Shown: piece after piece, positions 10,902 through 62,878 of the stretch | How the letters are laid out: each line of letters opens with the position of its first letter | Numbering within the stretch: position 1 is the stretch's first letter | NCBI GenBank assembly: GCA_030390025.1 | Contig: CM059432.1 | Span: 29,018,001 to 29,082,000, forward strand | From: Squalus acanthias | Lineage: Eukaryota | DNA: 64,000 nt | Direction: 5' to 3' | Position numbers and translations under genes: made by a program | Notes under the pieces: model-generated | What the model was told of the DNA's origin: nothing | Database searches by the model: none | Seen by the model: the letters and a program-made list of their open reading frames with translations, nothing else

Positions 10902-11309
10902 GCTTGGCAGCAAAATGGATTCACAGGTCTCTCCAGGCCGAGATTCAAGGCTGCAATGAGCAGGGTGTGGCTGGGGAGCAAGTGGCCCCCCCCCCCGCTT
11001 TAAGAAGTGGCCGGCGCCAGTGTGTCTGTGTTCCCTCGCTAACTGGCAGCAGCTGCGATGCGCTCGCGCGCTGAGTTAGCGCCTCACTCCTTGGCCTTTG
11101 CGCCTTAAGACAGGTGTGCAGCGCCTGCTTTAGCGCTCCACTCACCTCCCGGGGCGGTAAAAGTGAAGTTTGCAGTCAGTGCCGATAATTAGCGCCAGGC
11201 GCTAATATTTGCGTCCAGACGATATTTGCGCCCCAAATGGGGCGCGACCTAATTTCTACCCCGAGGTGCTTAGTGCTACTATACTGTTTTAGACCTTGGC
11301 TAAGTTCTT

Positions 11310-12095: not shown

Positions 12096-12988
12096 GGGGG
12101 AAAAATTCAGTTGGTTGCGCCTCCCATTAGCGCCTTAAGAGGGCGCTAATGGGGCGCAAAGCATCCAGCGCCCAGGCGCGGCGAAGTTTGCGCCGCTCGC
12201 GAAATTAACTAGACATTTTGCGGCGGCGCTAAACACTACCGCCACGATCTCCTGCGCTGGCAGATCGTGACATCAGTCGAGTGCGCAACGCCCCGGTATC
12301 GCCCCAGAGCGGATATTGAGTGGCGCCCCCTGCCTTACCGCCTGACGCTAGCAACGACAGTTTGAGTGGAGCGTTCTGCAGTCATGAAGGGAAAGGGGGA
12401 GCACTATTTAAAGGTGACCACTTCCTGCCTTTTATTGTTGGTGCCATTTTTGAACTACGCATTCTGAGAGAGAGAGAGAGAGACTTCTGGAGAGTTTCAA
12501 CGTTGTGTGAAGGAGTTTTGGGTACTGAGCAGCACTTTGTAGGTTCATTTTGATTTGCCATTCCTTGTATCGATTTAGAAGAGACTGTGGGGGCTGCACT
12601 CTGAGCTCTTTGCCTGGTACTCTCCATTGTTCTTTCCAGCAGATTTGATGTGCAGGTCTCTCCAGGCCGAGATTCAAGGCTGCAATGAGCAGGGTGTGGA
12701 TGGAGAGCAAGATCGACCCTCCCCTTTAAGAACTGGCCTGTGCCATTGTGTGTGTGTTCCATTGCTGACTGACATTACATGAGCTTCGCCAGCGCTCTGA
12801 TGTAGCGCCTCGCTCCTCGGCCTTTGCGCCTTAAGACAGGTGTGAAGCGCCTGATTTAGCGCACCAATCACCTCCAGGGGCGATAAAAGTCAAGTTTGCA
12901 GTCAGTGGCGATAATTAGTGCCAGGCACTAATCTTTGCGCCCGGCCGATAATTGCGCCCCAAATGGGGCGATACTGAATTTCTCCCCC
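12096..12988 (+). mobile_element. Non-autonomous internal-deletion derivative of the Harbinger family
   Basis: TIRs GGGGGAAAAATT / AATTTCTCCCCC, TSD ATA; left part parallels 7160-7640 including the GA run, right part parallels 10920-11262; both coding regions are absent. Confidence 0.92.
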
Positions 12989-25494: not shown

Positions 25495-26447
25495 ATGGCA
25501 GGGCAGCTCGGCTGTGTGGAGTGCTCCTCCTGTGCTATGTGGGAAGTCAAGGACACTTTAGGTGTCCAGGGCGAACACATGTGCAGGAAGCGTCTCCAGC
25601 TACAGCTACTCGAAATCCGCGTTCCGGAGCTGGAGCTGCAGCTGGAGTCACTGTGGAGCATCCGCGAAGCTGAGATCTTCGTGGATAGCACGTTTAACGA
25701 GGTGGTCACACCGCAGGTAAAGAGTGCACAGGCAATGGGTGACTGCCAGACAGAGTAAAAGAACTAGGAAGGTAGTGCAGGAGTCCCTTGGGTCCATCTC
25801 CCTCTCCAACAGATTTTCCGTTTTGGTTACTGCTGGGGGAGATGGTTTCTCAGGGGATTGCAGCAAGAGCCAAGTCCGTGGCACTACGAGTGGCTCAGCT
25901 GCACAGGAGGGGAGGAAGAGGAGTGGTAGAGCAATAGTGATAGGGGATTCTATCGTAAGGGGAACAGATAGACGTTTCTGTGGCTGCAGACGTGACTCCA
26001 GGATGGTATGTTGCCTCCCTGGTGCCAGGGTCAAGGATGTCACTGAACGGCTGCAGGGCATTCTGAAGGGGGAGGGCGAACAGTCAGAGGTCGTGGTTCA
26101 CATTGGTACCAACGACATGGGTAGAAAGAGGGATGAGGTCCTGCAACAAGAATTTAGGGAGCTAGGTAGCAGATTAAAAAGCAGGACCTCAAAGGTTGTA
26201 ATCTTTGGATTATTCCCGGTGCCATGTGCTAGTGAGTATATGAATAGGAGGATAGAGCAGATGAATGCGTGGCTAAAGAGTTGGTGCAGGAGGGAGGGCT
26301 TTAGTTTCCTGGATCACTGGGTCTGCTTCTGGGGAAGGTGGGACCTGTACAAGTCAGACGGGTTGCACCTGAACCGGAACGGGACCAACATCCTTGTGGG
26401 GAGGTTTGCTAGTACTGTTGCGGGGGGGGGGGGGGGGTTTAAACTAA
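25495..26447 (+). pseudogene. CR1 ORF1: Cys motif, coiled coil and SGNH/GDSL esterase
   Basis: CxxC...C N-terminus, leucine heptads, VIGDSIVR, PGA, HIGTND, DGLHL; frameshift near 25735 and a G16 run at 26422-26437. Confidence 0.9.
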
Positions 26448-30390: not shown

Positions 30391-31856
30391 CCACCCGACC
30401 TCATTACCTGACGTGATCCCGGAGCAACGGGGAAGCCGTTGGCGAACTCTTAAAATCTAAAGGTGAGCTTAAAATACCATTTAAGTGCCTCTTAATAATC
30501 TCTCAATGATCTAAATTGCCTCCCCCACCACTTGGTGTCGGGTCTGTTCAGCGATGACAGACCTGACATCTGGGAGACTGGCATGGAGGCGGGTTGACAG
30601 CTGGTTCCCTACCCGCGGTCAAAAAACATTTTCCCAGCCGACCCGCCACCAAACACGCCTGCTGACCCCCTGAAAAATTCCCCCCCATGTCTCAGTAAGT
30701 TGTGTATATCTCAATTTGCTGACACTGATGGAGCTTAGTGTTCTGACTACAGCTTATCTACCAATGAGGCAACAGATATTTTCAAATCTTCAGGCCCCTG
30801 AGGTTCAAACAGGGCAAACCAGCAAATAAGAAACCTAAGTGCAAATAGGACTAAGTTGCCTGAGTTTTGAAGGCCGGCTTGCCAGGGCCCAGGGACTGTG
30901 CATGCAGCTCAGAGTGGCCAACCCTATCCAGTTAATGTAAGGTTATGTCAGTTATGTGTCTTGTAAGAAAATGGCAGGAGAAGGAATATTAAATGAGCCT
31001 GGGGAGATAGAGGAAACTGTAAGAGATGTATTGTTGTTGGTATCCTGTCTCTGAGACTATTCCAGTGGGACCTCAATACAAGAGTTGACTCCTGCTGGTA
31101 TACACTTCAGTAGGTGCTGGCAGTCCATATATATTTGGCCAAAGTGGCTATTCTTTATGGGGTAGAATTTCTGCAGGGATTCTCCCGATCTCCTGCTGTA
31201 ACTATGGTGGGAACCCTGGAGATATGGCATAAATGGCCACACAGCGGTTCCGTCGATCTTCTTCTAAGAACCCCCACCAAAATTCCAGCGACATTAGTGG
31301 GCTGAGGTGGTGGGGGGAATTTTGACCCTCAAAAACGGGTGGGCTTGGCCCCCCCACTCCGAACGCATACAGCAGTAAATTTTGGCTCCTATGCTTCCTC
31401 TGAGTGAGTGTTGACTGACTCATTGGCAGGGTGTGGCGTATAATTAAGTTTAAACTGTGCTAATCTTTTGTTCACACACATACAAACACACACATGCACA
31501 TTTTCAGGAGTGTCACTGGACACTGATCATGGATGAAATACTGACTGATTTCCTCTCTTCCTAGCTAAAGTGTATTGAAACCTCCCTCTGCTGAGCTGTC
31601 ATCTGGCTGAGTCTTCACCGTTCGGCCCGTCTACCCGCCTGACCGAATCCTGCTCCCAGTTAACATTCCCCCTGCGACCTCTAGGATGCTAGTTCAGTCC
31701 CGTAACATTCGGCTACCGCAGCCATACTTAATATTAAGGAGGTTATGCTAAAATACAAAATGAGGTTAAATTGCGGAGAAAATAAATCCTTTGTTAAATA
31801 TGAATCAGATAGTTAATGAAACAGGAGGACCACTGAAGGATGGCAAGGGTGATACT

Positions 31857-35250: not shown

Positions 35251-36967
35251 GGGAGGTAAGGCATTCCTGAGTTTTGAGCTCCTAGGATAGAATGAGTTGA
35301 GGTTGACAAAAGTGTAGTGATATCCCAATGGATAACATTTAAGCAACTCACAGTGCCCAATTGGGCATGACAGTCTCGCAGCTGCATTGTGGGGTATTTT
35401 GTGGTTGGATCCGCTCATAATTTAGCTTCGTTGTGGACACAGGAGTCCTTAAGGTGTTCTCTCAGTGCAGTATTACTTGTCTAATATAATAGACTGCTGG
35501 TGAACCCAGGAGGTTTAGAGCTGAGGCATCCAAATTTAAGAAACATCTTCTTAACTTGGTAAAATAGAAAAAAAAACTGCAGACTTATGTGCAACTGAAA
35601 TCCGCTTGGCTAAGCATGAAGGGAGCTGTAAAAATGAAAAAAAAAAACCAGATTAATTTAGCAAAAAAGAGAAGGAAACAAATTGAGGGCAGCTATGGGG
35701 GGCTGGTTGGAAAGGTTTTGAACTTTTATTTTTGGGTTGTAAGCTTAGAGAAATTAATCTATTTTATGCTGTTAGTACACAGCTGTGAATCTGTTTAATC
35801 AGCAGTATAAAACTGACAGACCAATACCAGAGCAGGTAGAAATACTCTCTGCTGTCTATTTGATGCAACTTTCCTTCCCCCCATCCCCCCCCCCGCCCGC
35901 CACGTACCTAAGCTTTGAGTTAGAGTTCGTTCTGTACGTAACCCTCTGAGTACTGGATGGTGGTTCTAGCTGTTAAAATGTGCAGCAGAATTTGAAGACT
36001 CGATCACAATTTCAAAGAGCGATCATTGTGGATTCCTAATTCTCTCTGCCTTTCTTTATTTATTGAGGATTCAAGGCGAAGGTCCAAGGTCCAAAGTGCA
36101 AGATGCCACCAAGGTTGAAAAGAATAAAAGAAAGAGACTTGCATATATATGTAAAGGAAATAGCCATATTCCAAGAGATACACCATCCTATGAACAGAAT
36201 TTTGACTTTATTAAAACATGACAAACTGGGGTTAAAAATCTAAAAGCCTCAACGACACAGGCTGCAAATCTGAGATAAGATGAAGTGTTAACACAAAAGT
36301 TGTAAACACCACACAAGCTTTGAAATGGGAAATGGTTGTAAATACTAAGACAATGGCCTCATTGAAACGGAGGGTTGTAGGTTCCAAGGAGTCTGCAGTT
36401 TGGAACCAACACAATAGCAATGCACAAGTTAAGTGTTATAAAATAACACTTCGAACTGGAATACAGAATATTAAAAAACCATGTGCCTTTGTAAAAGTAA
36501 CATCAAATGAAACAGGAAACACGATTATATATACAACCAATTGAAGAAGCTAAGAAATGCAAAGAACACCCTAGATGAAGTGTTTTTTAATTTACATGTT
36601 GTAAAATTTACCTACAGAAGACTTTGAAAATATTACATCAATAGATGACACCAAGCAATCACATTGTGTTTGTATTGAAAATGGAATAGTTAGGAGATAC
36701 GACGTCTGCTAACAAGCAGTTAAGCCAATATTAAGAACTGAATTGAAGACCTTCCCTAAGAATGGCATCAAAGAGATAAATCTGTTTTAGCCATTTTATG
36801 ATAAGTTTTTGAAACACCTAAAGGTAGAGACAGAAGTCTGAAAGTTAACAGCTAAATTGACAGTAAGAATAGAAAAAAGTCAACAGAAAGAATCACTAGA
36901 GATAATTAGCTTACATTAGCAGCAACGCCATGGGGGAAGGGAAACTCGGGGACCATCTCCCTGGAGG

Positions 36968-37840
36968 GTGAGTGCGTACACGAGTTCTGCTGCACAGGAC
37001 TTGGATGAGGACCTCGATATAGTGGCCATGAATACTCAGGCTCTGAGCATGCATACGGAGCTCATGGGTGCAATGGCAAGGGTGCCCGACAGCATGAATG
37101 CACTGGCTAGGAGCATGGAGGAGTCCGCTGCCAGCACAGCTGTCATCTGTGCGCAAACCCTCAAACCCATCTTTGCCTCGTTACAGAGGATGGTTGAATT
37201 GCAGGGAGACCGTGGGGACCCAGAGCCCATGCCGTGTGTAATAGGTCAGGTGGCAGCATCTATTGCAGCACAGGCCGAGGCAACGCAATGGCTTAGTGCT
37301 GCAATCGAGTCATTGGCTGGTGCCATTCAATCTCAGACTGCATTCATGCAGTCTCAGATTGATGTCACGCAAGCGCTGACTGCTGCCATCCTCGCTGGGT
37401 CTCCCACAGTCCACCAGGGATCTGACGGTGCCGCAGCAGGCCAGCAATCTGTGCTCGAGCAGATTGCTCCGGATGCTGAGGTTCTGCCCCAGGGGATTGG
37501 CAGTGTGTCGGTCAAGCAGGAAGGTGCTGTCCTCTCTCAGGATGACAGCATTCCTGCTCCCATCACTGCCATTCTGTCATTGCACTTGCCACTGCCTGCA
37601 ACGCAGCCAGCCCAGACTGCTGCCGCCCATGCAGAGTTGGTGCAGTCTGCATTCGGGGCCTCCAGGCCCAGAGCTAGTCGAGGGCGTCCTTCAAGGCCAT
37701 CTCCAGTCTCTGGATCCAGCATTCAGCAGCCTTCCGCCAGCCTTGCTGCAGCCACTGGGGCCACATTACAGAGGAGCAGTAGGGTGGGAAGGGGGGAAGT
37801 GCGCAGGGGATGGAGATCACCCTCGAAGGGCGAAAAGTAA
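36968..37840 (+). CDS. Open C-terminal exon of Harbinger partner protein (fragment)
   Basis: Homologous to 50327-51217 (MNTQA..MHTELMGA..RVP...LARS; QTAAAHAELVQSA; RRGxRSPSKG); Myb exons missing. Confidence 0.7.
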   Translation: MSAYTSSAAQDLDEDLDIVAMNTQALSMHTELMGAMARVPDSMNALARSMEESAASTAVICAQTLKPIFASLQRMVELQGDRGDPEPMPCVIGQVAASIAAQAEATQWLSAAIESLAGAIQSQTAFMQSQIDVTQALTAAILAGSPTVHQGSDGAAAGQQSVLEQIAPDAEVLPQGIGSVSVKQEGAVLSQDDSIPAPITAILSLHLPLPATQPAQTAAAHAELVQSAFGASRPRASRGRPSRPSPVSGSSIQQPSASLAAATGATLQRSSRVGRGEVRRGWRSPSKGEK

Positions 37841-38149
37841 AAATTATCCAACAAATGGGGGGAATGTTTGTGGCAAAGTTTGATGTTCATCTTAATATAT
37901 TGTTCACTCTATTGACGCTTTTCTCGATGTGGTAAGAATGAGTTTTGTTAGTTAATGAATTGTTGTGTTTGTTTGTAAATGGTTGTGCTGAATAATTAAG
38001 ATGCAGTTTGTCAGATAAATAAAATTTTTTATTGGAACTTTACAACTTTGCTCATTTGACTCATTGGAGCTTTGCCCGGCAATAGGGGCTGCGGGATGCT
38101 TGCGATGATGTGCTTGTTCGTCCCAGAAGCCGTCTTCTCCGTCATTCAT

Positions 38150-39300
38150 CAGAAGCGGTGTCTTATCAGGCATTCACGAACGGCCCTTGCAGAGGCAACA
38201 TTGAACACCTCCCTCCCACGTTGGTGCTGCTCACCTTCCTCTTCATCCTCCTCCTCTGTCTCCTCCTCCTCCTACTCCTCCTTTCCCTCCTCCTCCTGAG
38301 GTGGTGCACCAATCACTGGTGGCAATGGCTGTGTCCTCATAATTGCGAGGTTGTGAAGCATGCAGCACGCAACAATGAAAAGCGATACTCGCTCGGGAGA
38401 GTACTGCAGGGCTCCTGCAGAGTGGTCAAGACACTGGAACCGTTGCTTCAGCACACCGATCGTCTGTTCAATGAGGTTCCTGGTGGCGCTATGGCTCTCA
38501 TTGTATGCGAGCTCAGCAGGAGTGTTGGGGTTACCGAGCAGTGTCATCAGCCAGGTGCAGAGTGGATAACCCTTGTCCCCGAGGAGACAGCCACGAGGTT
38601 GATGCGGTGGTTGGAAGAGGCCTGGGACACCAGTCTGGCGCAGGATGAAAGCATCGTGGCTGCTGCCAGGATAGCGGGCATTGACGGCGAGGATGCGCTG
38701 TCTGTGGTCGCACACCAACTGCATGTTAAGAGAATGAAAGCCTTTGCGGTTGCGGAACACCTCTGCATTTTCATGAGGTGCCCGCAATGCCACATGCGTG
38801 CAGTCAATGGTGCCTTGCACCATGGGGAAGCCCGCTATCCTAGCGAAACCTCATGCACGTTCGTGCTGTTTGTCCCGGGTCATAGGGAAAGAGATGTACT
38901 GGCGTCTCCTTTTGTGCAGAGCATTTGTCACCTCCTGGATGTAGCAATGGACAGCGAACTGGGAGATATTCGCTATGTCCCCAGTTGAAGCCTGGAAGGA
39001 GCCGCTGTCATAGAAATTCAGAGCCACCATCACCTTCACTGCCACCGACAGAGACGTCCTGGTCCTGAGCTGAGGCTGCAGATCTGGTTGCAGGAGGTGG
39101 CAGAGCTCAGTGACCACCTCCTTGATGAAGCGCAGCCTTCTGAAACACTTCTCCCGAATACCCTGGGAGGGTAAGGTCTCCTGTGCAGAGCCCTGGTGGC
39201 CCTCCTCCCTCTGGCCACATTTGCCACTTTCTCTCTGCACCTCTACTGCCTCCGAAGGTGAAACTGGAGGATGACGCCCCGAGTTAGTACTGCCCCCATT
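38150..39300 (-). pseudogene. Harbinger transposase, disrupted
   Basis: IDCTH, YPGSSHDA, LLGDKGY, IEQTIG; stop at ~38851 and a frameshifting deletion near 39150. Confidence 0.88.
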
Positions 39301-41128
39301 TAATTTTGTAAATGTGATAAATATGAAGCTCAGAGAATTAGAAACCTGAAAAGTGTTGCTCAAGAACAAAACTCCTTGTGGGACAGCGGTAAATGTCTCT
39401 CTCCCTCTCTCAACCTGCGTATGCCAAATATTTTGCCGACAGGAAAAAGCAGGAAGCGCACGCCTTTATATAGCGGTCCCCCAGCTCCTTGCTGACTGCA
39501 AAATGTCCCTCTCTACCTGTCGTTCCTAGCGGCAGGCGCTAAGGCAGGGGGCGAGAGTCATCTTCAAAATTTGAGTTAGGGCACCTTGAGAGGTGGAGGC
39601 CATAATCACTGACACACAAATTCTATCAGGTTATTCAGTGGATATAAATAGCAGGCACATGTAATGGAGGCTAACTTGATATAGATATCAATATCACTTT
39701 ATATAAGGTATGGAAACACAAGATAATATCAATTTTCCTCTCGTACCTGCAGCCCTGAAGGTTTTTTAAGCTAATTGAGTTTAAAATCTCATGTAGTGAT
39801 CTTTAGAAAATATGCTTTCTCAGATGATGCATGGCTCAAAGTCATCTACATCCCAAAGAATGACTGAAACATAGAACCACAGTTTATATCATAGAAGGAG
39901 GCCATTTGGTCCATCATAGCTATGATGCCTATTTGCTAGAGCAATCCAAAACTAATCCCACTATCTCTCCATAACCTGTATCAAACTCTGCTTCAAATGT
40001 TTATTTACTCTTCCTTTAGTCTCTGCCTCAACTATTCCCTGTGGCAAAGCAATCTATGCTCCCAACAGCCCCCTGCATAAAGAAATTTCTCCCAACCTTT
40101 CTCCTCTCTCTCTGAGTGACAGTTTCAAATTGATGATCCCCCATTACTGACTCTCCAAATAGAGGAAATATCTTTCTTTATGCACGGTATCAAAACCCCA
40201 TATAATTTGAAACCCCACACAGTTTCAGGGCCATAATATTATTTTATTAAAATGTGCCAGTAGCCTCGATGCAATTCGCCAAAATGGTGGAGAATTGCTT
40301 TGGTTGCTACGTGGAATGACATCGTAAATGCTGAAATGCGTTTCTGATTTTGCTAGGAATACTAATCTGAAGAAATCTTCCTGAATGTATTTACAATGTC
40401 ACTACACAGCCACCAGACCAATTCTTTCCCTTACATTGGCGCAAAAGTCAAAATGCTGACAACGCTAGGCCGCAACCAGCCAGCCTTCTCCACAACATTC
40501 AAGGACACTGGCAAGCAAAATACTTTGAGTGCCTCTGATGGCCAGTGTAGTAAAGAAGAAACCAATGTTGTCTCTTTACTTGAGTAGCAACAAAAATAGT
40601 CATTGCTTCAGGTTCAATACCTTTATTTCTTCAGTCAGTATGCAAAGCACTTTACAAGCAGAGTAGATTAAACAGATACGAGTACAGAAGTGTAAACAAG
40701 CACTTCACTATTCCCTCGCTGCATTAACTTTTCTAAGCACAAAATGTCTGTTTTTATATCATCCTTGGTCCCTTACTAAACTTGAATCTGGCTCTTCTCC
40801 CTTGATTGGATTCCTTCTGTCACCTGACTTAACATGACACCCGCCCCCTCCCCATGGTGTCCATTTTGAATCAAAGCTCAAGCCCCATGTCACGTAGCTT
40901 CCCTTATCTCATCTGCTCCCAGAACGTTATCTGTCTGATTTTCTGTGTGAAAAGCAGCTGCAGTTTAATAACTCCTTTGTTTTTCAAACTTTTAAAGCCA
41001 CAAGGCTTTCTTCTGGCAGGCTTTCAGGGTCCAGGCACAATGCTTTATTTCAATTAATGATGCACACACACACAAACTATCCTGCAATAATGCTTCCTGT
41101 TCACTATGCTAAACTAGCTGCTAGTTTT

Positions 41129-45279: not shown

Positions 45280-46899
45280 AGACGCCGTAATTGTGACAAT
45301 CTTCAAGAAAGGTTACAAATCCGATTGCGGTAATTACAGAGGAGTTTCCCTGCTGTCTGCCACAGGGAAAGTCATCGCAAGAATCCTCCTCAATCGCCTT
45401 CTCCCAGTGGGCGAAGAGCTCCTCCCAGAGTCGCAATGCGGATTCCGCCCACTAAGGGGCACAATGGACATGATCTTCACCGCGCGTCAATTCCAAGAGA
45501 AATGCAGGGAACAGCACCAACCGCTGTACATGGCCTTCTTTGACCTCACAAAGGCCTTCGACACGGTCAACCGTGAGGAATTATGGAGTGCCCTCCTCAA
45601 ATTCGGCTGACCGCAAAAGTTTGTCACCATCCTCCGCCTGCTTCACGACGACATGCAAGCTGTGATCCTGACCAATGGATCCACCAGAGACCCAATTCAT
45701 GTATGGACCGGGGTCAAGCAAGGCTGTGTCATTGCACCAACGCTCTTCTCGATCTTCCTTGCTGCAATGCTCCATCTCACCCTCAGTAAGCTCCCTGCTG
45801 GAGTGGAGCTAATTTACAGAACAAATGGGAAACTGTTCAATCTCTGTCACCTCCAGTCCAGATCCAAGGTTGTCCCATCCTCTGTCATCGAATTACAGTA
45901 TGCAGACGACGCTTGCATCTGCGCACACTTGGAGGTCGAACTCCAAACCATTGTCAACACCTTCACCGAAGCGTACGAGAGCATGGGCCTTACACTAAAC
46001 ATCTGTAAGACAAAGGTCCTCTACCAACCTGCCCCCACCATACAGTACTGCCCCCCGATTATCAAAATCCACGACAAGGCCTTGGACAACGTGGACCACT
46101 TTCCATACCTTGGGAGCCTACTGTCAACAAGGGCAGACATCGATGACGAAGTCCAACACTGCCTTCAGTGTGCCAGTGCAGCCTTCGGTCGCCTGAGGAA
46201 GAGAGTGTTTGAAGACCAGGACCTCAAACCCGGCACTAAGCTCATGGTCTGCAGAGCAGCAGTGATACCCGCCCTGCTGTATGCCTCAGAGACATGGACC
46301 ATGTATAGTAGACACCTCAAAGCACTGGAGAGGTACCACCAACTTTGCCTCCGCAAGATCCTGCCAATCCATTGGCAGGATAGGCGCATCAACGTCAGTG
46401 TTCTCGCTCAGGCCAACATCCCCAGCATTAAAGCTTTGACCACGCTCGATCAGCTCCGATGGATGGGTCACATCGTCCGCATGCCCAATACGAGACTCCC
46501 AAAACAAGCGCTCTACTCGGAGCTCCAACACGGCAAGAGAGCCCCAGGTGGGCAGAGGAAATGCTTCAAGGACACCCTCAAAGCCTCCTTGAAAAAGTGC
46601 AACATCCTCACTGACACCTGGGAATCCCTGGCCCAACGCCGCATAAAGTGGAGGAGAAGCATCCGGGAAGACGCCAAACACCTCGAGTCTCTTCGCCGGG
46701 AGCAAGCGGAAACCAAGCGCAAGCAGCGGAAGGAGCGCACGTCAACCCAAGCACCCCACCCACCCGCCCCTTCAACCACCGTCTGCCCCACCTGTGACAG
46801 AGACTGTAGGTCTCGCATTGGACTCATCAGTCACCTGAGAACTCATTTTTAATGTGGAAGCAAGTCATCCTCGGTTCCGAGGGACTGCCTAAGAAGAAG
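45280..46899 (+). mobile_element. RTE-clade LINE, 5'-truncated
   Basis: 8-bp TSD attctcag, (aag)n tail, 3' hairpin cctcggttccgagg; NYRGVSLL, QCGFRP, YADD, CPTC...HLRTH; one stop at 45608-45610. Confidence 0.95.
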
Positions 46900-48644
46900 A
46901 TTCTCAGTCTGCATCTCAATCTGTTGACAAGCAGACCAGAAATCTGGCTCTAGATTAAGTCTTAAGCTAATAAATGCAGTAATACCTGCATTTGTATAGC
47001 ACCTTATCATATGTCTTGAAACGCTGCACGGAAAAAATTGCCTTTTGCAATACAGTGAGTGACTGTTGGTATGTAGGCAAATATAGCCCATTCTGTGCTA
47101 GCCACATTTCACAAACAGCAAGGAGCTGTGTGTGGGTGAAGGAGGAATATTAGCCAGAACTCCCTGCTTATGTTTGGGATATGCCCAGCCGAACAGGCAG
47201 ATGGGACTTTTGGTTAACGTCTCATCCAAAAGCTGGTTATAGTTACAGACCCAAATCCGAAGTTTGGCAATATAAGTAGTGATAAGTTTCTTTGGAGAAA
47301 GGAAAAAAGAATAAAAGACTGAACTTTGCAACAGAGAGTATTTAAGTCAGCAATTCGCTGCTGAAAATTGCATCCTTAGCCCTTGCCTCGAGGGGTTAAA
47401 TTACGACCTGCACTAACAAGAGTGCTGAGCATTGCCTCCTTTTATTTTCTTAAAGCCTTGTGATCATATTTCTTTGCCGGGGAGAGCACTCGAGTAACCA
47501 GCATTTGCAGTTTTATTAAATAATGGCTGTTCTGATATCCAAAGCCAAAATTCATATTACAGGGGCTGAAGGTGGGGGGATATGCTTTTCTCTACCTGTC
47601 ACTTCACATTAACAGGCAAATTATTTGAACCTAAGGAAAAATCCATGACTTTTTTTTGGCCTGTCGATTCAGGCTTTGGGAATGATGAATGGCCATTTTA
47701 CCCTGATCCACTGATTTGTGTACCGCTGTGATTTCAAATCCATGCAGAAAAGGAACACGGCCATTCTTCACTCTGGCTACAGGCGAGTCAGGAATAAATT
47801 TTTCTACTAAAAACTTGCTAAGATCAGGGTTTCTTTGTGAGGAGCTTCTGACAGGCTGTCAGCTTACAGAGACGTCCTGTACTTTGTGAGCCTTTTGCTA
47901 GGAAGGTGTACGGGAGGTGGGGGTGAAGCGAGGAGAGAGCGAGGGAGCCAAGGCGGGTGCGTTATTTATCAGTCTTTTCTTTTCAAATTTTAGTTGGAGA
48001 TAATTCTATTAAAAGACACAGATTGCTCGCCATTAGCAGAGCCAAATACAAATATTCTGATTCGCCTTTATTTCCACTGTCGAATTTAATTCAGTCGGTC
48101 GTAATAATATGCCACAGCCTCCTTTTCTTTAAAAAAAAATTAACCCCTCTACTAAAGAATTGACTCCTTGCTCTCTGGCGCGCCGTCCAAGTGGACGATT
48201 ATTTATATGCGAATAATGACAGTGAGTGCCGGCAGGCTATTTGTCTGCAGGGGCGTCACAGCCAAGCGGGAACCTGTCCTCACAAAATGTTACTGCATGT
48301 CCACAACCAGCAGGAGCTACTCTATATTGGTCAGGAGCAGGACCCTTCCCTAAGCCTGAGGCCGATTTTACTGCTTTTAATTGAGCCCGAGCTGAGATCA
48401 ATTAACTTAGCATAGACTGGAGGTCAGACATAAGACGTTTCAGATCTGCATGGTTCAGTGACTCATCGGGAAAACTTGCTGAGCCATCAAGGAAGGAAGG
48501 ACCTGCTTAAATGAAGACTGTCATTCCAGCCCTACTCTGGGTTTCTAGACACTACTGTGGGCAATCATGCAAGCATGTTGACTAACAAATATTTAATGCT
48601 CAATTAAAAAAATGTGCAAAGCTACCCCAATGATGCATGCACCA

Positions 48645-48990
48645 GCAAATACTGAGCCATACAGACTTGAACAGTCCAAGGTTTGATCCCCACTATGTCC
48701 TGGTAGTAGGGGCGCTCCAACTATCTTCAATGTCCTTGGCCGAAAGAGAGAGCTGCTGGGATTGCTGCTCCTAATCGTCACTCAGTAACCTCCTATGGTA
48801 CAATGCATGTGAGTGTGCACACGCGTGTGTGCCTGCACGCCAAGTGAGAACAGGATTGAGCTCGGCTGTGCTGCCTCCTGCAGTCAAGTAGCATGCTGAC
48901 ATTCACCTGTGAAGAATGTCCCCTGGGCCGAAGGGTGCCAAACTAAAACAGGAATCAGAACGTTCCAGAGAGGAGAAGAACCATGGAAAG
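48645..48990 (+). mobile_element. AmnSINE2-like SINE, degenerate
   Basis: tactgagccatacagac...aggtttgatcccc...caggattgagctcggctgtg...gaagaatg. Confidence 0.55.
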
Positions 48991-49394
48991 AAAAAGGTTT
49001 GTAAATAGATTGCGATACACGCAACATAGAGTCATAAGGGTAGAAATTAGGTCGCGCCCCATTTGGGGCGCAAATATCGTCCGGACGCAAATATTAGCGC
49101 CTGGCGCTAATTATCGGCACTGACAGGAAACTTCACTTTTACCGCCCCGGGAGGTGAGTGGAGCGCTAAAGTAGGCGCTGCACACCTCTCTTAAGGCGCA
49201 AAGGCCAAGGAGTGAGGCGCTAACTCAGCGCACGAGCGCAGCACAGCTGCTGCCAGTTAGCGAGGGAACACAGACACACTGGCGCCGGACACTTCTTAAA
49301 GCGGGGGGGGGCCACTTGCTCCCCAGCCACACCCTGCTCATTGCAGCCTTGAATCTCAGCCTGGAGAGACCTGTAATCCATTTTGCTGCCAAGC

Positions 49395-49631
49395 ATGGAG
49401 AGGGTGAGAGAACGCGCTCATCGCTTCACCGAGCGGGCCTTGGATGCTCTGGTTGACGCAGTGGAGCGCAGACGATGCATGCTGTTCCCGGAGAGTGGCA
49501 GGAGGCCTTTGCCACGCGAGTTCAGAAGAGTGTGGAGGGAGGTGGCTCAGAGCGTCTCCTCCAGGAGCATGGTGCCCAGGACCCATGTTCAATGCCGCAA
49601 AAAGTTCAACGACCTCACTCAGGTCGTCAGG
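49395..49631 (+). CDS. Harbinger Myb/SANT-like partner, exon 1 (trihelix DNA-binding domain)
   Basis: RFTERALDALV.AVE.R...LF...W.EVA..VS......RT..QCRKKFNDL; donor AGG|GTGAGT, phase 0. Confidence 0.88.
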
Positions 49632-49915
49632 GTGAGTGGCTTTTTCTCAATACCTCTCCATCCCTCCATCTCAACCTCACTCTATGGCCAGAGGGTCTTA
49701 AAACCCCAATGCACAACACTCATCCAACATCTATGGCCCTTTCATCAAACACACACACACATTCCACACTTTGCATACAGTAAGGGCTATTCACCTATGG
49801 GAGGCACATCAGGCAAGACCATGGCTGTATATTGTAAGGGCTATTCACCTATGGGAGGCACATCAGGCAAGACCATGGCTGTATATTTACTCAGATGCTG
49901 TCCTTTTTCTTGCAG

Positions 49916-50078
49916 GCTAAGCTGGCTCATAATCGGAGACAGCAGCAACGAACGGGTGGAGGGCGGCTTCAGCTGCAACCCCTCAGCGATCTGGAGGAGC
50001 GCGTCCACAGGATTGTGGCAAGCCGGGTGATCGGTCCCGTCGCCACTGGAGACGCCGACCCCGTTGTGGACAGCAATG
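49916..50078 (+). CDS. Harbinger Myb/SANT-like partner, exon 2
   Basis: Acceptor tttttcttgcag|; AKLAHNRRQQQRTGGG; donor G|GTAAGG, phase 1. Confidence 0.85.
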
Positions 50079-50237
50079 GTAAGGTCATCACCTTTTTGTC
50101 CTCTGTCCTTCCACTTGTCCCTCACAATACCAGCCTTTGACACTTTCAATCCAACTTGCTAACTCGCTGCACTTATTCCTCCCTTACTGCCACCCTGTCC
50201 TCACGCTAAAGCCACTCTTGTACCTCCCTGCTTTCAG

Positions 50238-51217
50238 ATGGTGATTCACCAGCTGAGGAGACGGGCCCTGAAGCTGCCACTGGGAGTGATGCTGCAGCTG
50301 AGGAGGAAGAGGAAGCCGGAGCATCAGTGCCACCCTCTCCCGAGGAAGCCCATGCCCACACTGGGAACACGCCTTCCCCGGAGGGGAGCAGGGGGGAAGG
50401 GGCTGATGATGGTGAAGCTCCAGGACCCAGCGGGCTGCAGCAACGCCATGGGGGGGGTAGGGAAGAACGGGGGCCTTCTCCCCAGAGGGAGAGTATGCCA
50501 GACACTCCTAATGCAATGGACGCAGAGGAGGAGCGGCTGATTGCAGAAATGAACACCCAGGCGGTGGGCATGCACACTGAGCTCATGGGTGCAGTGGGAA
50601 GGGTGCCCGATTGCATTGAGTCACTGGCAAGGAGTGTGGAGCACTTCGCTGTAGCACAGGCGGATGCCACACTAACGCTTAGTGCTGCAATTCAGTCACT
50701 GGCTGCCGTGATCCCACCTCTGACTGCTCTCATACAGACTCAGATGGAGGCCACGCGAGCACAGACTGCTGCCAACCTCGATGGTTCGTGCACATGTCCC
50801 CGGGGCTGTCACCGCGCCGCAGCAGGCCAGCAATCTGTTCTCCGGCAAATTGCTCCGGATGCTGAAGTGCTGCCCCGTGGGAGTGCCAGTGTGTCGGGCG
50901 AGCAGGGAGTTGCTGGCCTCTCTCACGATGACAGCATTCCTGCTGCCAACACTGTCACTTCTCCACTGCACTTGCCACCGCCTGTAGGACAGACTGCTGC
51001 CGCCCATGCAGAGTTGGTGCAGTCTGCAGCCGGGCCCTCCAGGCCCAGAAGTGGTCGAGGCCGTCCTTCAGGGGCATCTGCAGTGTCAGGGTCTGACGAG
51101 CAGCAGCCTTCCACCAGCCTTGCTGCAGCCACTGAGGTCCCATTACGGAGGAGCAGTAGGGTTAGAAGGGGGGAAGTGCGCAAGGGAAGGAGATCACCCT
51201 CGAAGGGCAAAAAGTAG
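50238..51217 (+). CDS. Harbinger Myb/SANT-like partner, exon 3 (acidic linker, Ala-rich helical region, basic tail)
   Basis: Acceptor ccctgctttcag|; the phase-1 join keeps the 50327-51217 frame; spliced CDS 1380 nt = 459 aa plus stop. Confidence 0.8.
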
Positions 51218-51511
51218 GAGGTGTGCCAAAATGCTGGTCATTTTTTTATTAAAGGCCGAGGTTCATGGTCCAACTTTTGTTTCGTGTTTTGGACATTATC
51301 TCCAGGTTGTGAGAACCAGTTATGTTATTGACTGTTTTTTTGTGTTTATTTCTATGAGTTTGTCATGAGGAATTGACACACACAGAGTTTGTAAAATAAA
51401 TAAGTTTCTGTATTCAAAATATACATGGCTGGTGGTTGGAATTATTGGTGCCTTGGCCGGCTTAGGGGTTGCGTGCTGGGTTGATTAGTGTTTGTAGCAA
51501 TGGCAGGGGCC

Positions 51512-52672
51512 CTAGAAGCGGCTTGCTATTAGTCGTTGACGGACGGCCCTTGCAGTTTGACCATTGTGGGCCGCCCTCCTGCCTTGGTGCTGCTGATGAT
51601 CATCGTCCTCGTCCTCTTCCTCCTCTTCCTCCTCCTCCTCTGGTGGTGCTACAAGGCCTGGTGGCATTGGCTGGGTCCTGAGGATTGCCATGTTGTGCAA
51701 CATGCAGCACACGACTACGAAGTTCGAAACTTGCTCAGGCGAGTACTGCAGGGCTCCTCCGGAATGGTCCAGACAGCGGAACCGTTGTTTCAGCACGCCG
51801 ATTGTGCGCTCAATAATGTTCCTGGTTGCTTGATGGCTTTCATTGTACCGCAGCTCAGCACGGGTGTTTGGCGTACGGAGCGGTGTCATCAGCCAGGTGC
51901 TCAATGCGTACCCCTTGTCCCCCAGAAGCCAATCAACTGGCTGATGCGGTGCCTCGAAAACTTCTGCCACAGTAGTCTGGCGCAGGATGAAAGCATCGTG
52001 GCAGCTGCCCGGATAGTGGGCATTGACAGCGAGTATCACCTGTCTGTGGTCACAGACCAACTGCACATTCAAGGAATGGAACCCCTTTCTGTTCCTGAAT
52101 TCCTCTGCATTCTCTCGCGGAGCACGCAAAGCCACATGCGTGCAGTCAATGGCGCCCTGCACCATGGGGAATCCTGCTACCCTCGCAAAGCCCAGAGCAC
52201 GGTCACGCTGCTTGTCTGGGGTCATAGGGAAAGAGATGAAGTCTCGTCTCCTTCTGAAGAGGGCATTGGTGACCTGCCAGATGCAGCAATGCACCGCAAA
52301 CTGGGAGATATTGGCGAGGTCCCCAACAGCAGCTTGGAATGAGCCAGTGGCGTAGAAGTTCAAAGCCACTGTGACCTTCACTGCCACCGACAGAGACGTC
52401 CTGGACCTCAGCTGAGGCTGCAGATCTGGCTGCAGCAGGTGGCAGAGCTCAGTGACCACCTCCTTGCTGAATCGCAGCCTTCGCAAACATAGCTCCTCGG
52501 ACATATGGATGTAGGAGAGCTGTTCACGATATACCCTGGGAGGGTAAGCTCTCCTGTACATGCGCCTGATGGCCCTCCTCCGTCTGGCCATCATTGCCAC
52601 TCTCTGTCTGCGTCTCAGTATCCTCCGATTCAGCTGGAGCAGGACGACGCCCCCAATCATTGCAGCCCCCAT
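51512..52672 (-). CDS. Harbinger DDE transposase (HARBI1-like), intact 386 aa
   Basis: HTH-like region, GAIDCTH, YPGSCHDA, LLGDKGY, IERTIG.LKQRFRCL, CCMLHN, acidic tail. Confidence 0.96.
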   Translation of the reverse strand: MGAAMIGGVVLLQLNRRILRRRQRVAMMARRRRAIRRMYRRAYPPRVYREQLSYIHMSEELCLRRLRFSKEVVTELCHLLQPDLQPQLRSRTSLSVAVKVTVALNFYATGSFQAAVGDLANISQFAVHCCIWQVTNALFRRRRDFISFPMTPDKQRDRALGFARVAGFPMVQGAIDCTHVALRAPRENAEEFRNRKGFHSLNVQLVCDHRQVILAVNAHYPGSCHDAFILRQTTVAEVFEAPHQPVDWLLGDKGYALSTWLMTPLRTPNTRAELRYNESHQATRNIIERTIGVLKQRFRCLDHSGGALQYSPEQVSNFVVVCCMLHNMAILRTQPMPPGLVAPPEEEEEEEEEDEDDDHQQHQGRRAAHNGQTARAVRQRLIASRF

Positions 52673-53185
52673 ATTCTCTTTGCCAGAAAACTAATGAGGT
52701 ACAGCAACTAAAGTAGCAACAAAGTTAGGATGAACTAGGCAAAACGACCTCACAAAGCGTTGAGTCAATGTAGAAGTCTCTCTCTCTCTCTCTCAGAATC
52801 TCTCTCTCTCTCTCAGAACGAGTGGTGCATAAATGTCGACCACAGAAAAAGACAGGAAGAGGCCCCCTTTAAATAGCGCCCCCCCCCAGCCCCACACCGA
52901 TTGATAACGTTCCAGTCTTCCGGTCGTTGGAAGCGCCAGGCGGTAAGGCAGGGGGCGCCACTCAATTTCCGCTCCGGGGCGCCCCAAGGGCGTTGCACCA
53001 TGGAATGACGTCACAATCTGCGCGCGCAGGTGGTCGCAGCGGTAAGTTTTAGAGCCGCCGCACAATCTCAAGTTAAGTTCTCGAGCGGCGCAAACAGCGC
53101 TGCGCCCGGGCGTTAGCGGCTTAACGCCCCATTAGCGCCCTCTTAAGGCGCTAACGGGAGGCGCAACCAAGTGAATTTTTACCCC

Positions 53186-53950
53186 ATAGGGTCTTAACGG
53201 CACAGAAGGAGGCCATTCGGCCCATCAAGTCCATGCCGGCTCTCTGTAGAGCAATCCAGTCATTCCCATTCCCACGCTCTATCCCCGTAGCCCTGCAAGT
53301 TTATTTCCCTCAAGTGCCTATCCAGACTCCCCTTGAAAACATTGAGTGTCTCCGTTTCCACCACTTCCGTCGGCAGCGAGTTCCAGGTCCTCACCACTCG
53401 CTGCGTAAAAAAGATTTTCCTCACCTCCCCCCTGTATCTCTTGCCCAAAACCTTAAATCTGTGTCCCCTAGTCCTTGTACAGGAAACTCTTTATTAACCG
53501 GCACCCAAATATCCGGAAATCTCTCTTAACCGGCAATATTCTTGAGTAGGTAACCGGGGTTTTCCTTCATCTCTCGTTTAAAATTAACTTTAAAAAAAAC
53601 CCCGAGGCGTTTGCCTTGTATCGGAGCATGTAGATTGGGAGGGGAATGTGCAGCCCGGGTAGGCAGCGGACACGACAGATGGTCAGCTGGCGGTCCCCGG
53701 GGAGACGGAGCTCCGAATGCAGGCGCATGTCAATGTGTACGGGGCTCTCGTACGTTGGGAGATATAACTCTCCATTATCCGGACTTTTTGATTAACCGGC
53801 ACCACGCCGGTCCCGTCGGTGCCGGTTAATAAAGAGTTTCCTGTACCATCAACTAGTGGGAACAGCCTTTCCCCATCTAGCCTATCCAAACCCGTCATAA
53901 TCTTGTACTCCTCTATCAAATCACCTGTCCTTGTAGCTTGTAGCTAAGAT
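53186..53950 (-). mobile_element. CR1 3' fragment; its (catagagt) tail lies at 49025-49036 beyond the Harbinger insertion
   Basis: FFTQRVVRTWNSLP; paralogous to 61665-62090. Confidence 0.88.
53480..53843. mobile_element. Tc1/mariner (Tigger/pogo-like) MITE
   Basis: 26-bp perfect TIR CAGGAAACTCTTTATTAACCGGCACC, TA TSD; the empty site ccttgtaccatc is present in the paralog at ~61933. Confidence 0.92.
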
Positions 53951-54343
53951 CCCCATTGAATCCCACATAGAATTACGCAGAAGTGAAAACAGGGAAACAA
54001 ACTGTTGGTGTTGGTGTTTATCCTCCACTTGGGCAGTAGTCCTAATTCCATGTTCCCACCCTGTTTTCATATTGCTTTATCCCCCTTTCCATCAAACTTA
54101 TCGAACCTATTCTTAAATGTTGACTTTGCCTTTGCTTCGATCAGTCAATCTGGTAATGCATTCCACAGCCTCACAAGTCTCTGTGTAAAAAGGTTTTGGC
54201 TGCTCTCTGTCCTAACTCTCTTACAATTAAATTTATATTATACATCTACAGGAACACAAACTACTCACCCAATATACATTATATAATGACATTATATTTT
54301 GCAATCAAAACAAAGGAAAAATGAAACCAGCTGTTTGTATAAA

Positions 54344-56054: not shown

Positions 56055-58026
56055 ATACATAGATACATAGATACATAGAAGATAGGAGCAGGAGTAGGCC
56101 ATCCGGCCCTTCGAGCCTGCTCCGCCATTTAATGAGATCATGGCTGATCCTTCAATTCAGTATCCCGTCCCCGCCTTCTCTCCGTAACCCTTAACCCCTT
56201 TTGCCTGTAGAAATATATCTAATTCCCTCTTAAATATATTTAATGAGCTGGCGTACACTGCCCTCTGTGGCAATGAGTTCCACAGGTTCACCACTCTCTG
56301 AGTGAAGAAATTCCCCCTCATTTCTGTCCTAAATGGTTTAGCCCTTATCCTTAAATTATGTCCTCTAGTTCTGTTCTCACCCGCCAAGGGAAACATTCCT
56401 TCTGCATCTAATCTGTCTAGACCTGTCAGAATTTTATACACTTCTATGAGGTCCCCTCTCAATCTTCTAAACTCCAGTGTGTACATCCCTAAACTACATA
56501 GTCTCTCCTCATAGGTCAATCCCGCCATTCCTGGTATCAGCCTGGTGAATCGCCGCTGCACCCCCTCCATGGCAAGAACATCTTTCCTCAGATGAGGCGA
56601 CCAAAACTGTACACAGTACTCGAGGTGTGGTCTCACCAGTGCCCTGTACAGCTGCAGCAAGGTATCCCTGTTCCTGTATTCCAACCCTTTTGCTATGAAG
56701 GCCAGCATACCGTTTGCCTTCTTGACCGCCTGTTGCACCTGCATGCTCGCCTTCAGTGACTGGTGTACAAGAACACCCAGGTCTCTCTGTACTTCCCCCT
56801 CTCCCAATTTATTGCCATTTAAATAATAATTTGCCCTCCCGTTCCTGCACCCAAGGTGGATAACTTCGCACTTGTCCACATTATAGTGCATCTGCCATTT
56901 ATCCGCCCAATCACCCAGTCTGTCCAAATCGCTCTGGAGCTTCCTGGTCTCCTCCTCTGAGCCCACCCCCCCTCCTAGTTTAGTGTCGTCTGCAAATTTG
57001 GAAATGCTGCATTCGACTCCCTGATCCAGGTCATTAATATAAATTGTGAACAGCTGGGGACCCAGGACAGATCCCTGTGGTACCCCACTTGTTACTGCCT
57101 GCCATTCAGAAAATGAGCCGTTTATTCCAACTCTCTGTTTTCTATCTGACAGCCAGTTCTCTATCCACGTCAATACTTTCCCCTTTATCCCATGAGCTTC
57201 AATTTTCCATGCTAATCTTTTATGTGGGACCTTATCGAAGGCCTTTTGGAAGTCCAGGTACACCACATCTACTGGCTCTCCCCCATCTATTTTACCAGTT
57301 ACTCCCTCAAAAAATTCCAATAGATTAGTCAAGCACGATTTACCCTTTGTAAATCCATGTTGACTCTGTCCTATCCTGTCCCCATTTGCTAAGTGCTCGG
57401 CTATTTCATCCTTAATGATGGACTCCAGCATTTTGCCCACAACTGATGTAAGGCTTACAGGTCTGTAATTACCTGCTTTTTCCCTACCCTCCTTTTTGAA
57501 TAGTGGGGTAACGTTAGCTACCCTCCAATCCATGGGCACTGTTCCCGAGTCTAATGAATTCTGAAAAATCATGCTTAGTGCATCCGCTATCTCTCGGGCC
57601 ACCTCCTTCAGTACCCTAGGATGCATGTTATCAGGCCCTGGGGATTTGTCCGGCTTCAATCCCTTTAGCTTCCTTAACACCATATCCTTAGAGATATTGA
57701 TTTGCGTCAGTTCCTCCTTTGCCAATGTCCCTATTTTTCCCGATATCCCAGGGAGGTTTTTTGTGTCTTCCTTCGTAAAGACTGACCCAAAGTATGCATT
57801 TAGTTGGTCTGCCATTTCCTTATTTCCCATTATATATTCCCCCGTATCTGACTGCAATGGACCAACTTTGGTTTTCACCAGTCTTTTCCTCTTGATATAC
57901 TTATAAAAGCTTTTGGAGTTAGTTTTTATATTTTCCGCCAGCTTGCTTTCGTAAGCTATTTTGCCCTTCTTGATTAAGCCCTTTGCCCTCCTTTGCTCTA
58001 TCTTAAACTGTTCCCAATGTTCCCAA
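56055..58026 (-). mobile_element. Young 5'-truncated CR1 LINE
   Basis: (ATACATAG)3 tail, 3' UTR, uninterrupted RT frame. Confidence 0.95.
56157..57878 (-). CDS. CR1 ORF2 reverse transcriptase (open 573-aa fragment)
   Basis: NYRPVSLTS, QHGF, DFQKAFDKVPH, GVPQGSVLGP, FADDTK, LVRPHLEYC. Confidence 0.92.
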   Translation of the reverse strand: MKTKVGPLQSDTGEYIMGNKEMADQLNAYFGSVFTKEDTKNLPGISGKIGTLAKEELTQINISKDMVLRKLKGLKPDKSPGPDNMHPRVLKEVAREIADALSMIFQNSLDSGTVPMDWRVANVTPLFKKEGREKAGNYRPVSLTSVVGKMLESIIKDEIAEHLANGDRIGQSQHGFTKGKSCLTNLLEFFEGVTGKIDGGEPVDVVYLDFQKAFDKVPHKRLAWKIEAHGIKGKVLTWIENWLSDRKQRVGINGSFSEWQAVTSGVPQGSVLGPQLFTIYINDLDQGVECSISKFADDTKLGGGVGSEEETRKLQSDLDRLGDWADKWQMHYNVDKCEVIHLGCRNGRANYYLNGNKLGEGEVQRDLGVLVHQSLKASMQVQQAVKKANGMLAFIAKGLEYRNRDTLLQLYRALVRPHLEYCVQFWSPHLRKDVLAMEGVQRRFTRLIPGMAGLTYEERLCSLGMYTLEFRRLRGDLIEVYKILTGLDRLDAEGMFPLAGENRTRGHNLRIRAKPFRTEMRGNFFTQRVVNLWNSLPQRAVYASSLNIFKRELDIFLQAKGVKGYGEKAGTGY

Positions 58027-58151
58027 AAACCTAATCTTGGTGTTATCTAATCACTCAATCTTTATTGTCTTGTCTTCGTTTTTATTCCTTTCCACTTTGG
58101 GCCTTGCCTTTTTTTTTGGTCAGCCAGATGTCTAAAATGTGGAGAAACCCA

Positions 58152-61179: not shown

Positions 61180-62878
61180 AGTCATAGAGTCATAATGAAA
61201 GAAAGACTTGCATTTATATAGCGCCTTTCAAGACCACCGGATGTCTCAAAGCGTTTTACAGCCAATTAAGTGCTTTTTGAAGTATAGTCACTGTTGTAAT
61301 GTGGGAAACGCGGCAGCCAATTTGCGCACAGCAAGCTCCCACAAACAGCAATGTGAAAATGACCAGATAACCTGTTTTTGTTATGTTGGTTGAGGGAGAA
61401 ATATTGGCCAGGACACCGGGGATTATTCCCCTACTCTTCTTCGAAATAGTGCCATGGGATCGTTTAAGTCCACCTGAGAGAGCAGACGGGGCCTCGGTTT
61501 AATGTCTCATCTGAAAGACGGCACCTCTGACAGTGCAGCACTCCCTTAGCACTGCACTGGAGTGTCAGCCTAGCTTTATGTGTGCAAGTCCCTGGAGTGG
61601 GACTTGAACCCACAACCTTCTGACTCAGAGGCGAGTGTGCTACCAACTGAGCCACAGCTGACACAGAAGGAGGACATTCGGCCCATCGAGTCCGTGCCAG
61701 CTCTCTGTAGAGCAATCCAGTCAGTCCCATTCCCCCGCTCTACCCCGTAGTCCTACAAGTTTATTTCCCTCAAGTGCCTATCCAGTCTCCCCTTGAAAAC
61801 ATTGAGTGTCTCCGCTTCCATCACTTCCATTGGCAACGAGTTCCAGTTCCTCACTACTCGCTGCGTAAAAAAGTTTTCCCTCACATCCCCCCTGTATCTC
61901 TTGCCCAAAACCTTAAATCTGTGTCCCCTAGTCCTTGTACCATCAACTAGTGGGAACAGCCTTTCCCCGTCTAGCCTATCCAAACCCGTCATAATCTTGT
62001 ACACCTCAATCAAATCACCCCTCAACCTCCTTTGCTCCAATGAAAACAAATCCAGCTTCTCCAACCTGTCCTTGTAGCTAAGATCCCCCATACCCGGAAC
62101 CATTCTGGTAAATCTCCTCTGCACCCTCTCAAGTGCCTTCACATCCTTCCTAAAGTGTGGTGACCAGAACTGGATACAATACTCCAGTTGTGGCCTAACC
62201 AGCGCTTTATAAAGGTTCAGCATAACTTCTCTACTTTTGTACCCAATACCTCTATTTATGAAGCCCAAGATCCCATCTGCTTTGCTAACCACTCTCTCAA
62301 TATGTCCTGCCACCTTCAGGGACCTATGCACATTAACTCCCAGGTCCCTCTGTCCCTGCACACTCTTTAAAACTGTGCCATTAAGTGTATATTGCCTCTC
62401 CCTGTTCCTTCTGCCAAAATGCATCACCTCACACTTCTCTGTATTAAATTCCATCTGCCACTTGTCTGCCCATTCTGCTAGCCTTTCTATGTCCTGTTGC
62501 AGTCGATTGGTATCATCCTCAATGTTTGACACATCCCCAAGTTTGGTTTCATCGGCAAATTTAGAAATTCTACTCTATATTCCAATATCCAGGTCATTTA
62601 TATATATCAAAAAAAGCAGTGGCCCCAGCACTGACCCTTCGGGGACACCACTGTCTACTATCCTCCAGTCTGAAAAACAGCCATTTACCACAACTCACTG
62701 TTTTCTGTCCTTAAGCCAATTCCTTATCCAAGTTGCCACTGACCCACCTATTCCATGAGCCTCAAATTTGTTAACCAGCCTTCTATGTGGTACTTTGTCA
62801 AATGCCTTCCTAAAATCCATGTAGACAACATCCATTGCCTTCCCTTCATCAATCCTCCCTGTTACTTCATCAAAAAAT
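61180..62878 (-). mobile_element. 5'-truncated CR1, tail separated by the SINE insertion
   Basis: [33 protein letters not shown]; tail gtcatagagtcata at 61181-61194. Confidence 0.92.
61197..61664 (-). mobile_element. Deu-domain tRNA SINE (SacSINE1-like), well preserved
   Basis: Head gtgtcagctgtggctcagttggtagc (A box) ... gggttcaagtccc (B box); tail gcaagtctttctttc. Confidence 0.9.

Follow-up and report, generated by a model that had tools for sequence, protein, structure and literature searches.

We report that a 4,149-bp Harbinger transposon occupies positions 49037 to 53185 of a 64,000-nucleotide stretch of Squalus acanthias DNA (contig CM059432.1, positions 29,018,001 to 29,082,000; hereafter the window), where it is present at full length. 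We consider it likely that this is a real full-length copy of a high-copy elasmobranch Harbinger, young, drifted since its insertion and probably weakened, rather than a demonstrated or specially likely source element. As judged by its sequence, the element is of the two-ORF (open reading frame) type of the PIF/Harbinger-like superfamily (PHIS): it has a DDE_Tnp_4 domain with the catalytic triad, a Myb/SANT trihelix ORF, short family terminal inverted repeats (TIRs) that start with G (A in this copy), and a 3-bp target-site duplication (TSD). The full-length, two-gene element of autonomous type that a preliminary description of this DNA had proposed is thus present in all its parts.

The copy is bounded by ATA triplets at 49034-49036 and 53186-53188, the latter forming the start of a repeated tail, which has matches at five other sites in the window and which we take to be of CR1/SINE (short interspersed nuclear element) type. 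The 12-bp TIRs, AGGGTAGAAATT at 49037-49048 on the forward strand and GGGGTAAAAATT, read inward, at 53174-53185 on the reverse strand, are complementary at 10 of 12 positions, and at 11 of 12 in a sister copy at 7160-11262. Such a TIR alone is not above chance, as 27 window sites match it with at most two mismatches, and it is absent from the window repeat listing. Because the TIR is too short by itself, the boundaries rest on the sister copy, which ends at the identical bases and has its own GAG duplication, on a step in read depth at both ends of the element, and on contigs of run X17 that depart from the element at 53185 into different flanks. The ends and the matching ATA duplication given in the preliminary description hold at every coordinate. 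A different boundary, with TAA as the TSD and a shorter TIR, was rejected, since the right flank would then read CAT.

Seven GGCGCTAA-like motifs (at most one mismatch, both strands) lie near each end, at 49067-49223 on the left and 52939-53154 on the right, where 0.6 and 0.75 would be expected; 0 of 1000 shuffles reach seven, a generous control given that the motif was picked by eye from these same ends. None occurs in the 3.3-kb interior of the element, and a relative of about 80% identity at 12096-12988 retains six and eight. The arrays are putative binding sites for the Myb protein. Inward of them, TATA-like TTAAAG (49296-49301, forward strand) and TATTTAAA (52868-52875, reverse strand) are candidate promoters of the Myb gene and of the transposase gene. 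The spacer between the convergent stops (51218-51511) holds predicted poly(A) hexamers at 51248 and 51395 on the forward strand and at 51245 and 51345 on the reverse.

The transposase gene (51512-52672, reverse strand) is a single open exon encoding 386 residues, with a match to PF13359 (E 1.7e-39). Alignment of homologues places the catalytic triad at D176 (52147-52145), D252 (51919-51917) and E288 (51811-51809), where 98 of 117, 93 of 114 and 76 of 116 homologues agree on the majority residue; a helix-turn-helix (HTH)-like domain covers about residues 69-147. The predicted model (predicted local distance difference test, pLDDT, 90; predicted template modelling score, pTM, 0.84) has a fold resembling DDE transposases and integrases. 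In the VIA-align comparison the best structural match was the piggyBac transposase (Z 9.8, root-mean-square deviation 5.0, 224 residues aligned), a similarity that shows the shared DDE fold only; no solved relative came up in a PDB sequence search at E < 0.05 or in Foldseek at < 0.001. Prediction of a complex between residues 1-335 of the transposase and a stretch of 110 residues from exon 3 of the partner gene gave no answer (score 0.00).

That partner, a Myb/SANT-like gene on the forward strand, comprises exon 1 (49395-49631; 79 codons, with a trihelix domain matching PF13873 at E 2.2e-9), exon 2 (49916-50078), which is colinear with homologues, and exon 3 (50238-51217), which has homologue matches and encodes an acidic linker, a helical region and a basic C-terminal tail before a TAG stop. 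Intron 1 (49632-49915, GTGAGT...TTGCAG, phase 0) and intron 2 (50079-50237, GTAAGG...TTTCAG, phase 1) are of the GT-AG class, and their removal joins the exons into an open frame of 459 residues. Exon 3 has no Pfam match, and as a query in a word-indexed protein database it found none among 8,000 candidates, its homology surfacing only via Myb-bearing proteins. Both genes are therefore as the preliminary description had drawn them, the uninterrupted transposase with its D/D/E residues as well as the spliced partner.

The family to which this copy belongs is very abundant. From run X1, 47,097 contigs were aligned, and summed depth is 1.9e5 to 1.1e6 in element bins against 16 to 26 in contigs of single-copy flank, which points to roughly thousands of copies, the depth being an order of magnitude and not a copy number. 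About 20% of the window is Harbinger-derived, made up of this copy, the sister, three short forms and a truncated relative of 74% identity. The sister copy (reverse strand, 97.2% identical) is broken: its transposase has stops at codons 85 and 372, its Myb gene a 1-nt deletion in codon 205 and a GT>AT change at donor 2, and its subterminal region a 44-nt deletion. The truncated copy (36920-39560, forward strand) is decayed and belongs to a sister subfamily, with 74% identity in DNA and 72% in the amino acids of the transposase. Two non-autonomous relatives have paired ends and a TSD, one at 5685-6121 (reverse strand, AAT) and the other at 12096-12988 (reverse strand, ATA). One end of the latter is identical at 58 of 62 positions to the right end of the 49037-53185 element, and the preliminary description had named it as a donor for both ORFs; over the terminal 390 nt the identity is only about 80%, so that we trace it to a sister subfamily and not to that element, and it is a plausible candidate substrate in trans. 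Further short elements with Harbinger-like ends lie at 58152-~58790, with a degraded far end, and at 31159-31329; no TSD could be fixed for either.

Outside the window, the best database matches of the transposase are elasmobranch proteins named 'putative nuclease HARBI1', at 60-66% identity, and none reaches 90%; P0001-P0003, from Pristiophorus japonicus, are among the nearest. D, D and E are retained in 53 of 120 transposase homologues. In a quick tree with 79 rows, 76 from the 120 homologues and three from the window, the window copies nest among multi-copy Pristiophorus sequences. Eight organisms have at least half of the element's sequence words; four of 24 runs were compared in contig detail, and run X13 (organism G) yielded only 57 low-depth contigs, the flanking repeat included, and looks like trace DNA. 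As a separate observation, five short-branch clades extend across several shark and ray genera, mostly with degenerate catalytic residues (P0011/P0013; P0041/P0042; P0067/P0027/P0026; P0008/P0028/P0019/P0014/P0023/P0020; P0004/P0005). They are candidate elasmobranch-specific domesticated Harbinger transposases, distinct from the multi-copy elements.

Drift after insertion is indicated by the positions at which this copy departs from its family. At 10 of the 28 listed variants within the element, at least 85% of the X1 depth carries the other letter, which the sister copy also has at all ten. Six of these near-private changes are coding, four replacement and two silent, matching the expectation for neutral drift, and three of the ten are CpG-type decays, two of which give R76Q in the Myb protein and R132W in the transposase. 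R76Q (49621, exon 1) lies in the last helix of the trihelix, at a position where arginine is found in 96% of X1 depth, in 47 of 60 homologues and in 18 of the 22 closest. R132W (52279) falls within the final helix of the HTH-like domain; the other letter makes up 99.9% of X1 depth and W132 about 0.05%, and homologues have arginine in 64 of 112 cases and tryptophan in five. A third conserved position, transposase residue 247 (51933, five residues before D252), is aspartate here and glycine in both other window copies and in 86 of 113 homologues (aspartate in six), and is not among the X1 variants listed. The preliminary description had raised inactivating substitutions relative to the family as a sign that would tell against activity: it is seen in part, in departures at conserved sites (R76Q, R132W, G247D) whose weakening effect is putative. 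Its terminal A in place of G is likewise real, since the sister and the other paired ends in the window have G, and is a likely handicap. In mPing, single-end changes at TIR positions 1 to 3 lower transposition (PMC9921582), and the terminal G>A should lower mobility here.

The open frames themselves say little. Under neutral simulation at 0.3-1.4% divergence, with and without indels, both frames, the starts and the splice sites stay intact in 76% down to 8% of copies, and because so many neutral copies remain open, openness is little sign of activity; both frames are probably open here because the copy is young. In a study of sea kraits, 269 intact Harbinger copies are given for Laticauda colubrina, and RNA over an intact copy for L. 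laticaudata (PMC8437027). With openness expected by chance at such rates, the family abundant and intact copies so numerous in a sea krait, we find no support for the suggestion that its open frames set this copy apart as uncommon or as a candidate active transposon.

How young the copy is can be gauged from its neighbours. In the Myb half the nearest contigs differ by 0.3-0.7%, in the transposase half by 1.5-2.6%, and some others are more distant; within the window the nearest copy is 2.8% away and none is identical. At the rate of 7e-10 per generation given for the epaulette shark (PMC10587355), the 4 to 11 near-private changes counted over 4,149 bases would imply 1.4-3.8 million generations, a figure that borrows the rate of another species and includes CpG sites, which change faster. 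In the flanks, 17 of 1,451 bases of X1 disagree with the window, which makes X1 another haplotype or a close species; the copy-to-family distance is about half this flank distance, which makes the insertion roughly as old as that split. The listed joints, which all fall within the right-flank repeat, include no empty site, and no listed contig spans the left junction. We also observed that X1 contigs of the single-copy flank at 47900-48955 are 0.4-2.6% off the window and carry a 20-nt insertion, and that those at 53959-54300 are identical, a divergence that is high and patchy for a shark.

The transposase bears a record of selection. Between the two full-length copies it differs by 25 silent and 21 replacement changes (replacement-to-silent ratio pN/pS 0.26), a silent excess over neutrality with P from 6e-6 to 3e-4 across five mutation spectra, which shows purifying selection on the gene across a pair of copies from the same genome; for the Myb gene the same pair gives pN/pS 0.42 and a borderline P of 0.02-0.09. 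Divergence between the copies is also uneven, with 16 differences in 1,274 positions of exon 3 and the spacer against 46 in 1,161 of the transposase (about threefold, p 2.6e-5), which suggests mosaic copies and exchange of segments between sub-lineages. A survey of 307 vertebrate genomes found that DNA transposons evolve neutrally inside a genome and come under purifying selection when they are transferred horizontally (PMC7070016). Coming from one pair, our signal cannot separate three sources: selection in cis on source lineages, transfer that occurred repeatedly, and exchange involving an older sub-lineage. If it holds over many copies, the persistence of DNA transposons without horizontal transfer becomes a testable question.

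Several of these observations weigh against a copy that has merely drifted and weakened. On its own branch, the transposase of 49037-53185 accumulated 15 silent and 11 replacement changes, from which it follows that this lineage was under selection until fairly recently. D176, D252 and E288 are intact, as are both start codons and all four splice sites. None of the substituted positions, conserved as they are, is invariant, and the weakening effect is putative; and a mutated TIR need not immobilise mPing (PMC9921582). The drift counts come from the 28 variants listed, with 160 further rows outside the listing, and the difference between near-private and shared variants in replacement to silent changes (4:2 vs 3:7) is not significant (Fisher p 0.30). 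Alleles that X1 lacks could, moreover, come from a more recent burst in the lineage of the window itself.

These points lend themselves to a different explanation, in which 49037-53185 is a competent current source element, its substitutions tolerated in a young sub-lineage, that mobilises itself or its relatives in the germ line today. The open frames, intact DDE residues, splice sites and motif arrays agree with this, as do the closeness of the nearest contigs in the Myb half, the purifying selection on its transposase branch, and the fact that the reference run X1 is a different haplotype. The terminal G>A stands against it, together with the CpG-type decays that produced R76Q and R132W, the near absence of W132 from X1, the 2.8% gap to the nearest window copy with none identical, and the age implied by the epaulette-shark rate (PMC10587355), and we regard a source element as unlikely.

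It could also be that the partner gene is spliced otherwise or not at all, the 459-residue product being a paper construct. Contigs of runs X17 and X19 are unspliced over donor 1 (49344-49801 and 49346-49723) and acceptor 2 (50205-50443), and no intron-sized joint occurs among the 15 listed of 94 joints; that these runs are RNA is a guess, and they may be DNA, since the non-coding ends and the flanking repeats are covered as well, so that they speak neither for nor against splicing. Junction 2, which lies in low-complexity sequence, is covered by few homologues, all of which are predicted gene models in their own right. Against this, 65 of 71 Myb-domain homologues gave an alignment with the spliced product, and junction 1 is crossed in 47 of the 65, compared with 2 of 64 when intron 1 is retained. 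One homologue, P0124, aligns over residues 11-456 at 36% identity, colinear across all three exons, and exon 3 is matched by five of the 71. The donors GTGAGT and GTAAGG are strong, and at each acceptor 14 of 17 positions are pyrimidines. The predicted three-exon model is thus supported by homologous proteins, and we think it highly improbable that splicing takes another course. Two observations concern the gene without bearing on this question: intron 1 holds a 54-nt tandem duplication common to both full-length copies (49772-49887; 10411-10524), and the database model P0006 (523 residues) fuses a Myb exon pair to a transposase and is probably an artefact of gene prediction that joined adjacent parts of elements.

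That the host has kept a domesticated HARBI1/NAIF1-like gene pair would agree with two open frames and with the several domesticated Harbinger transposases that elasmobranchs appear to hold, and is scarcely credible in the face of TIRs, a TSD and subterminal arrays, a high copy number in place of a single copy, an insertion inside a repeat tail with a broken 97% sister nearby, and a position among multi-copy Pristiophorus sequences, outside the short-branch cross-species clades.

Sites of insertion give a view of the family's target preference. Four paired elements in the window have a 3-bp TSD in all four cases (ATA, GAG, ATA, AAT), and their flanks match AAACACCWGGTCTTT, the target consensus of zebrafish Harbinger3_DR (PMC3016246), at 31 of 48 positions, a score reached by 0 of 200,000 background draws of 15-mers from the window. 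The sites resemble AAA(C/G)AC-nnn-GT(C/G)TTT; the CWG centre is not kept and the centre is free. A loose end of X17 at 53185 also reads TAT GTCTTT (three contigs, agreement 0.58). It is quite unlikely, in our estimate, that the family is still transposing in the window's lineage with this or near-identical copies supplying working proteins, which would make it a natural, unreconstructed vertebrate Harbinger with Harbinger3-type flanks and a free 3-bp centre.

In the model that we favour, that of a young copy weakened by drift, the two convergent genes would be transcribed from promoters in the two ends. The spliced Myb/SANT protein would bind the ends by means of its trihelix, with the GGCGCTAA-like arrays as the probable sites, and, as in zebrafish Harbinger3_DR, where this is established, would import the transposase into the nucleus and recruit it to the ends; the DDE transposase would then excise the element and insert it with a 3-bp stagger at sites like those above. 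Both proteins may act in trans on short relatives that have kept their ends. The 49037-53185 copy would have been placed by the family's latest wave and have drifted thereafter, and it is probably weakened by the changes at the terminal base, Myb arginine 76 and two conserved residues of the transposase.

The window contains other mobile sequences. Nested in the repeat tail to the right of the Harbinger, a 364-nt element at 53480-53843 has inverted ends that match at 27 of 28 positions and TA on both sides, and is presumably a miniature inverted-repeat transposable element of Tc1/mariner type; contigs of all four compared runs skip it, which provides paralogous empty sites. Translation points to long reverse-transcriptase-like ORFs of the LINE (long interspersed nuclear element) type at 56157-58046 (629 residues, open), 25721-28828, 61753-62574 and 45611-46852.

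Among described systems, the element is closest in outline to other members of PHIS. Han et al. (2015) gave the TSD as CWG for NuwaI and TWA for PIF/Harbinger and called PHIS absent from sharks (PMC4482050). Our element is like NuwaI in its GGG-starting family TIR (12 bp here, 12-61 bp in NuwaI), its DDE and Myb/SANT ORFs, its 3-bp TSD and its length (near 4.1 kb here, about 4.5 kb there) (PMC4482050), and it differs from both groups in that neither 5'-CWG-3' nor the strict 5'-TWA-3' fits any of the four TSDs, the latter on either strand, in what is a small sample. In the superfamily both proteins are required, and the Myb-like protein binds the ends and the transposase N-terminus and imports the transposase (PMC2836001, PMC9392472, PMC9179366). 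Zebrafish Harbinger3_DR and Harbinger3N_DR share with our element two ORFs, a 3-bp TSD, non-autonomous relatives and AAACAC-nnn-GTCTTT flanks (PMC2836001, PMC3016246, PMC9392472), a likeness in described features, and the centre is CWG there and ATA, GAG, ATA and AAT here. Harbinger3_DR is active only as a reconstruction, whereas the shark element is a natural copy known by its letters.

Harbinger-Snek of sea kraits is comparable: its copy number is very high, and intact copies with both genes occur beside truncated variants and short non-autonomous forms (PMC8437027). It differs in having RNA support and a horizontal transfer dated to 15-25 Mya (million years ago) (PMC8437027), whereas the nearest relatives of our element are other elasmobranch transposases. 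The elasmobranch proteins annotated as HARBI1 are automatic models of transposon copies or derived genes, many of them truncated. For cartilaginous fish, one report found no PHIS elements in the elephant shark and calls for study of other cartilaginous species (PMC9179366), and Harbingers of the whale shark and grey reef shark are listed in repeat annotation only (PMC8455134, PMC12498223). A literature search, which covered sources other than subscription journals, Repbase and Dfam, found no description of a full-length elasmobranch Harbinger. Intact vertebrate Harbingers and shark Harbingers are already in print, and a single such copy is ordinary. What the 49037-53185 element adds is a structurally complete two-gene Harbinger documented in an elasmobranch, contrary to the survey that called PHIS absent (PMC4482050), and, should the family prove mobile, studies of mechanism and structure would gain a natural vertebrate Harbinger whose integration is sequence-biased.

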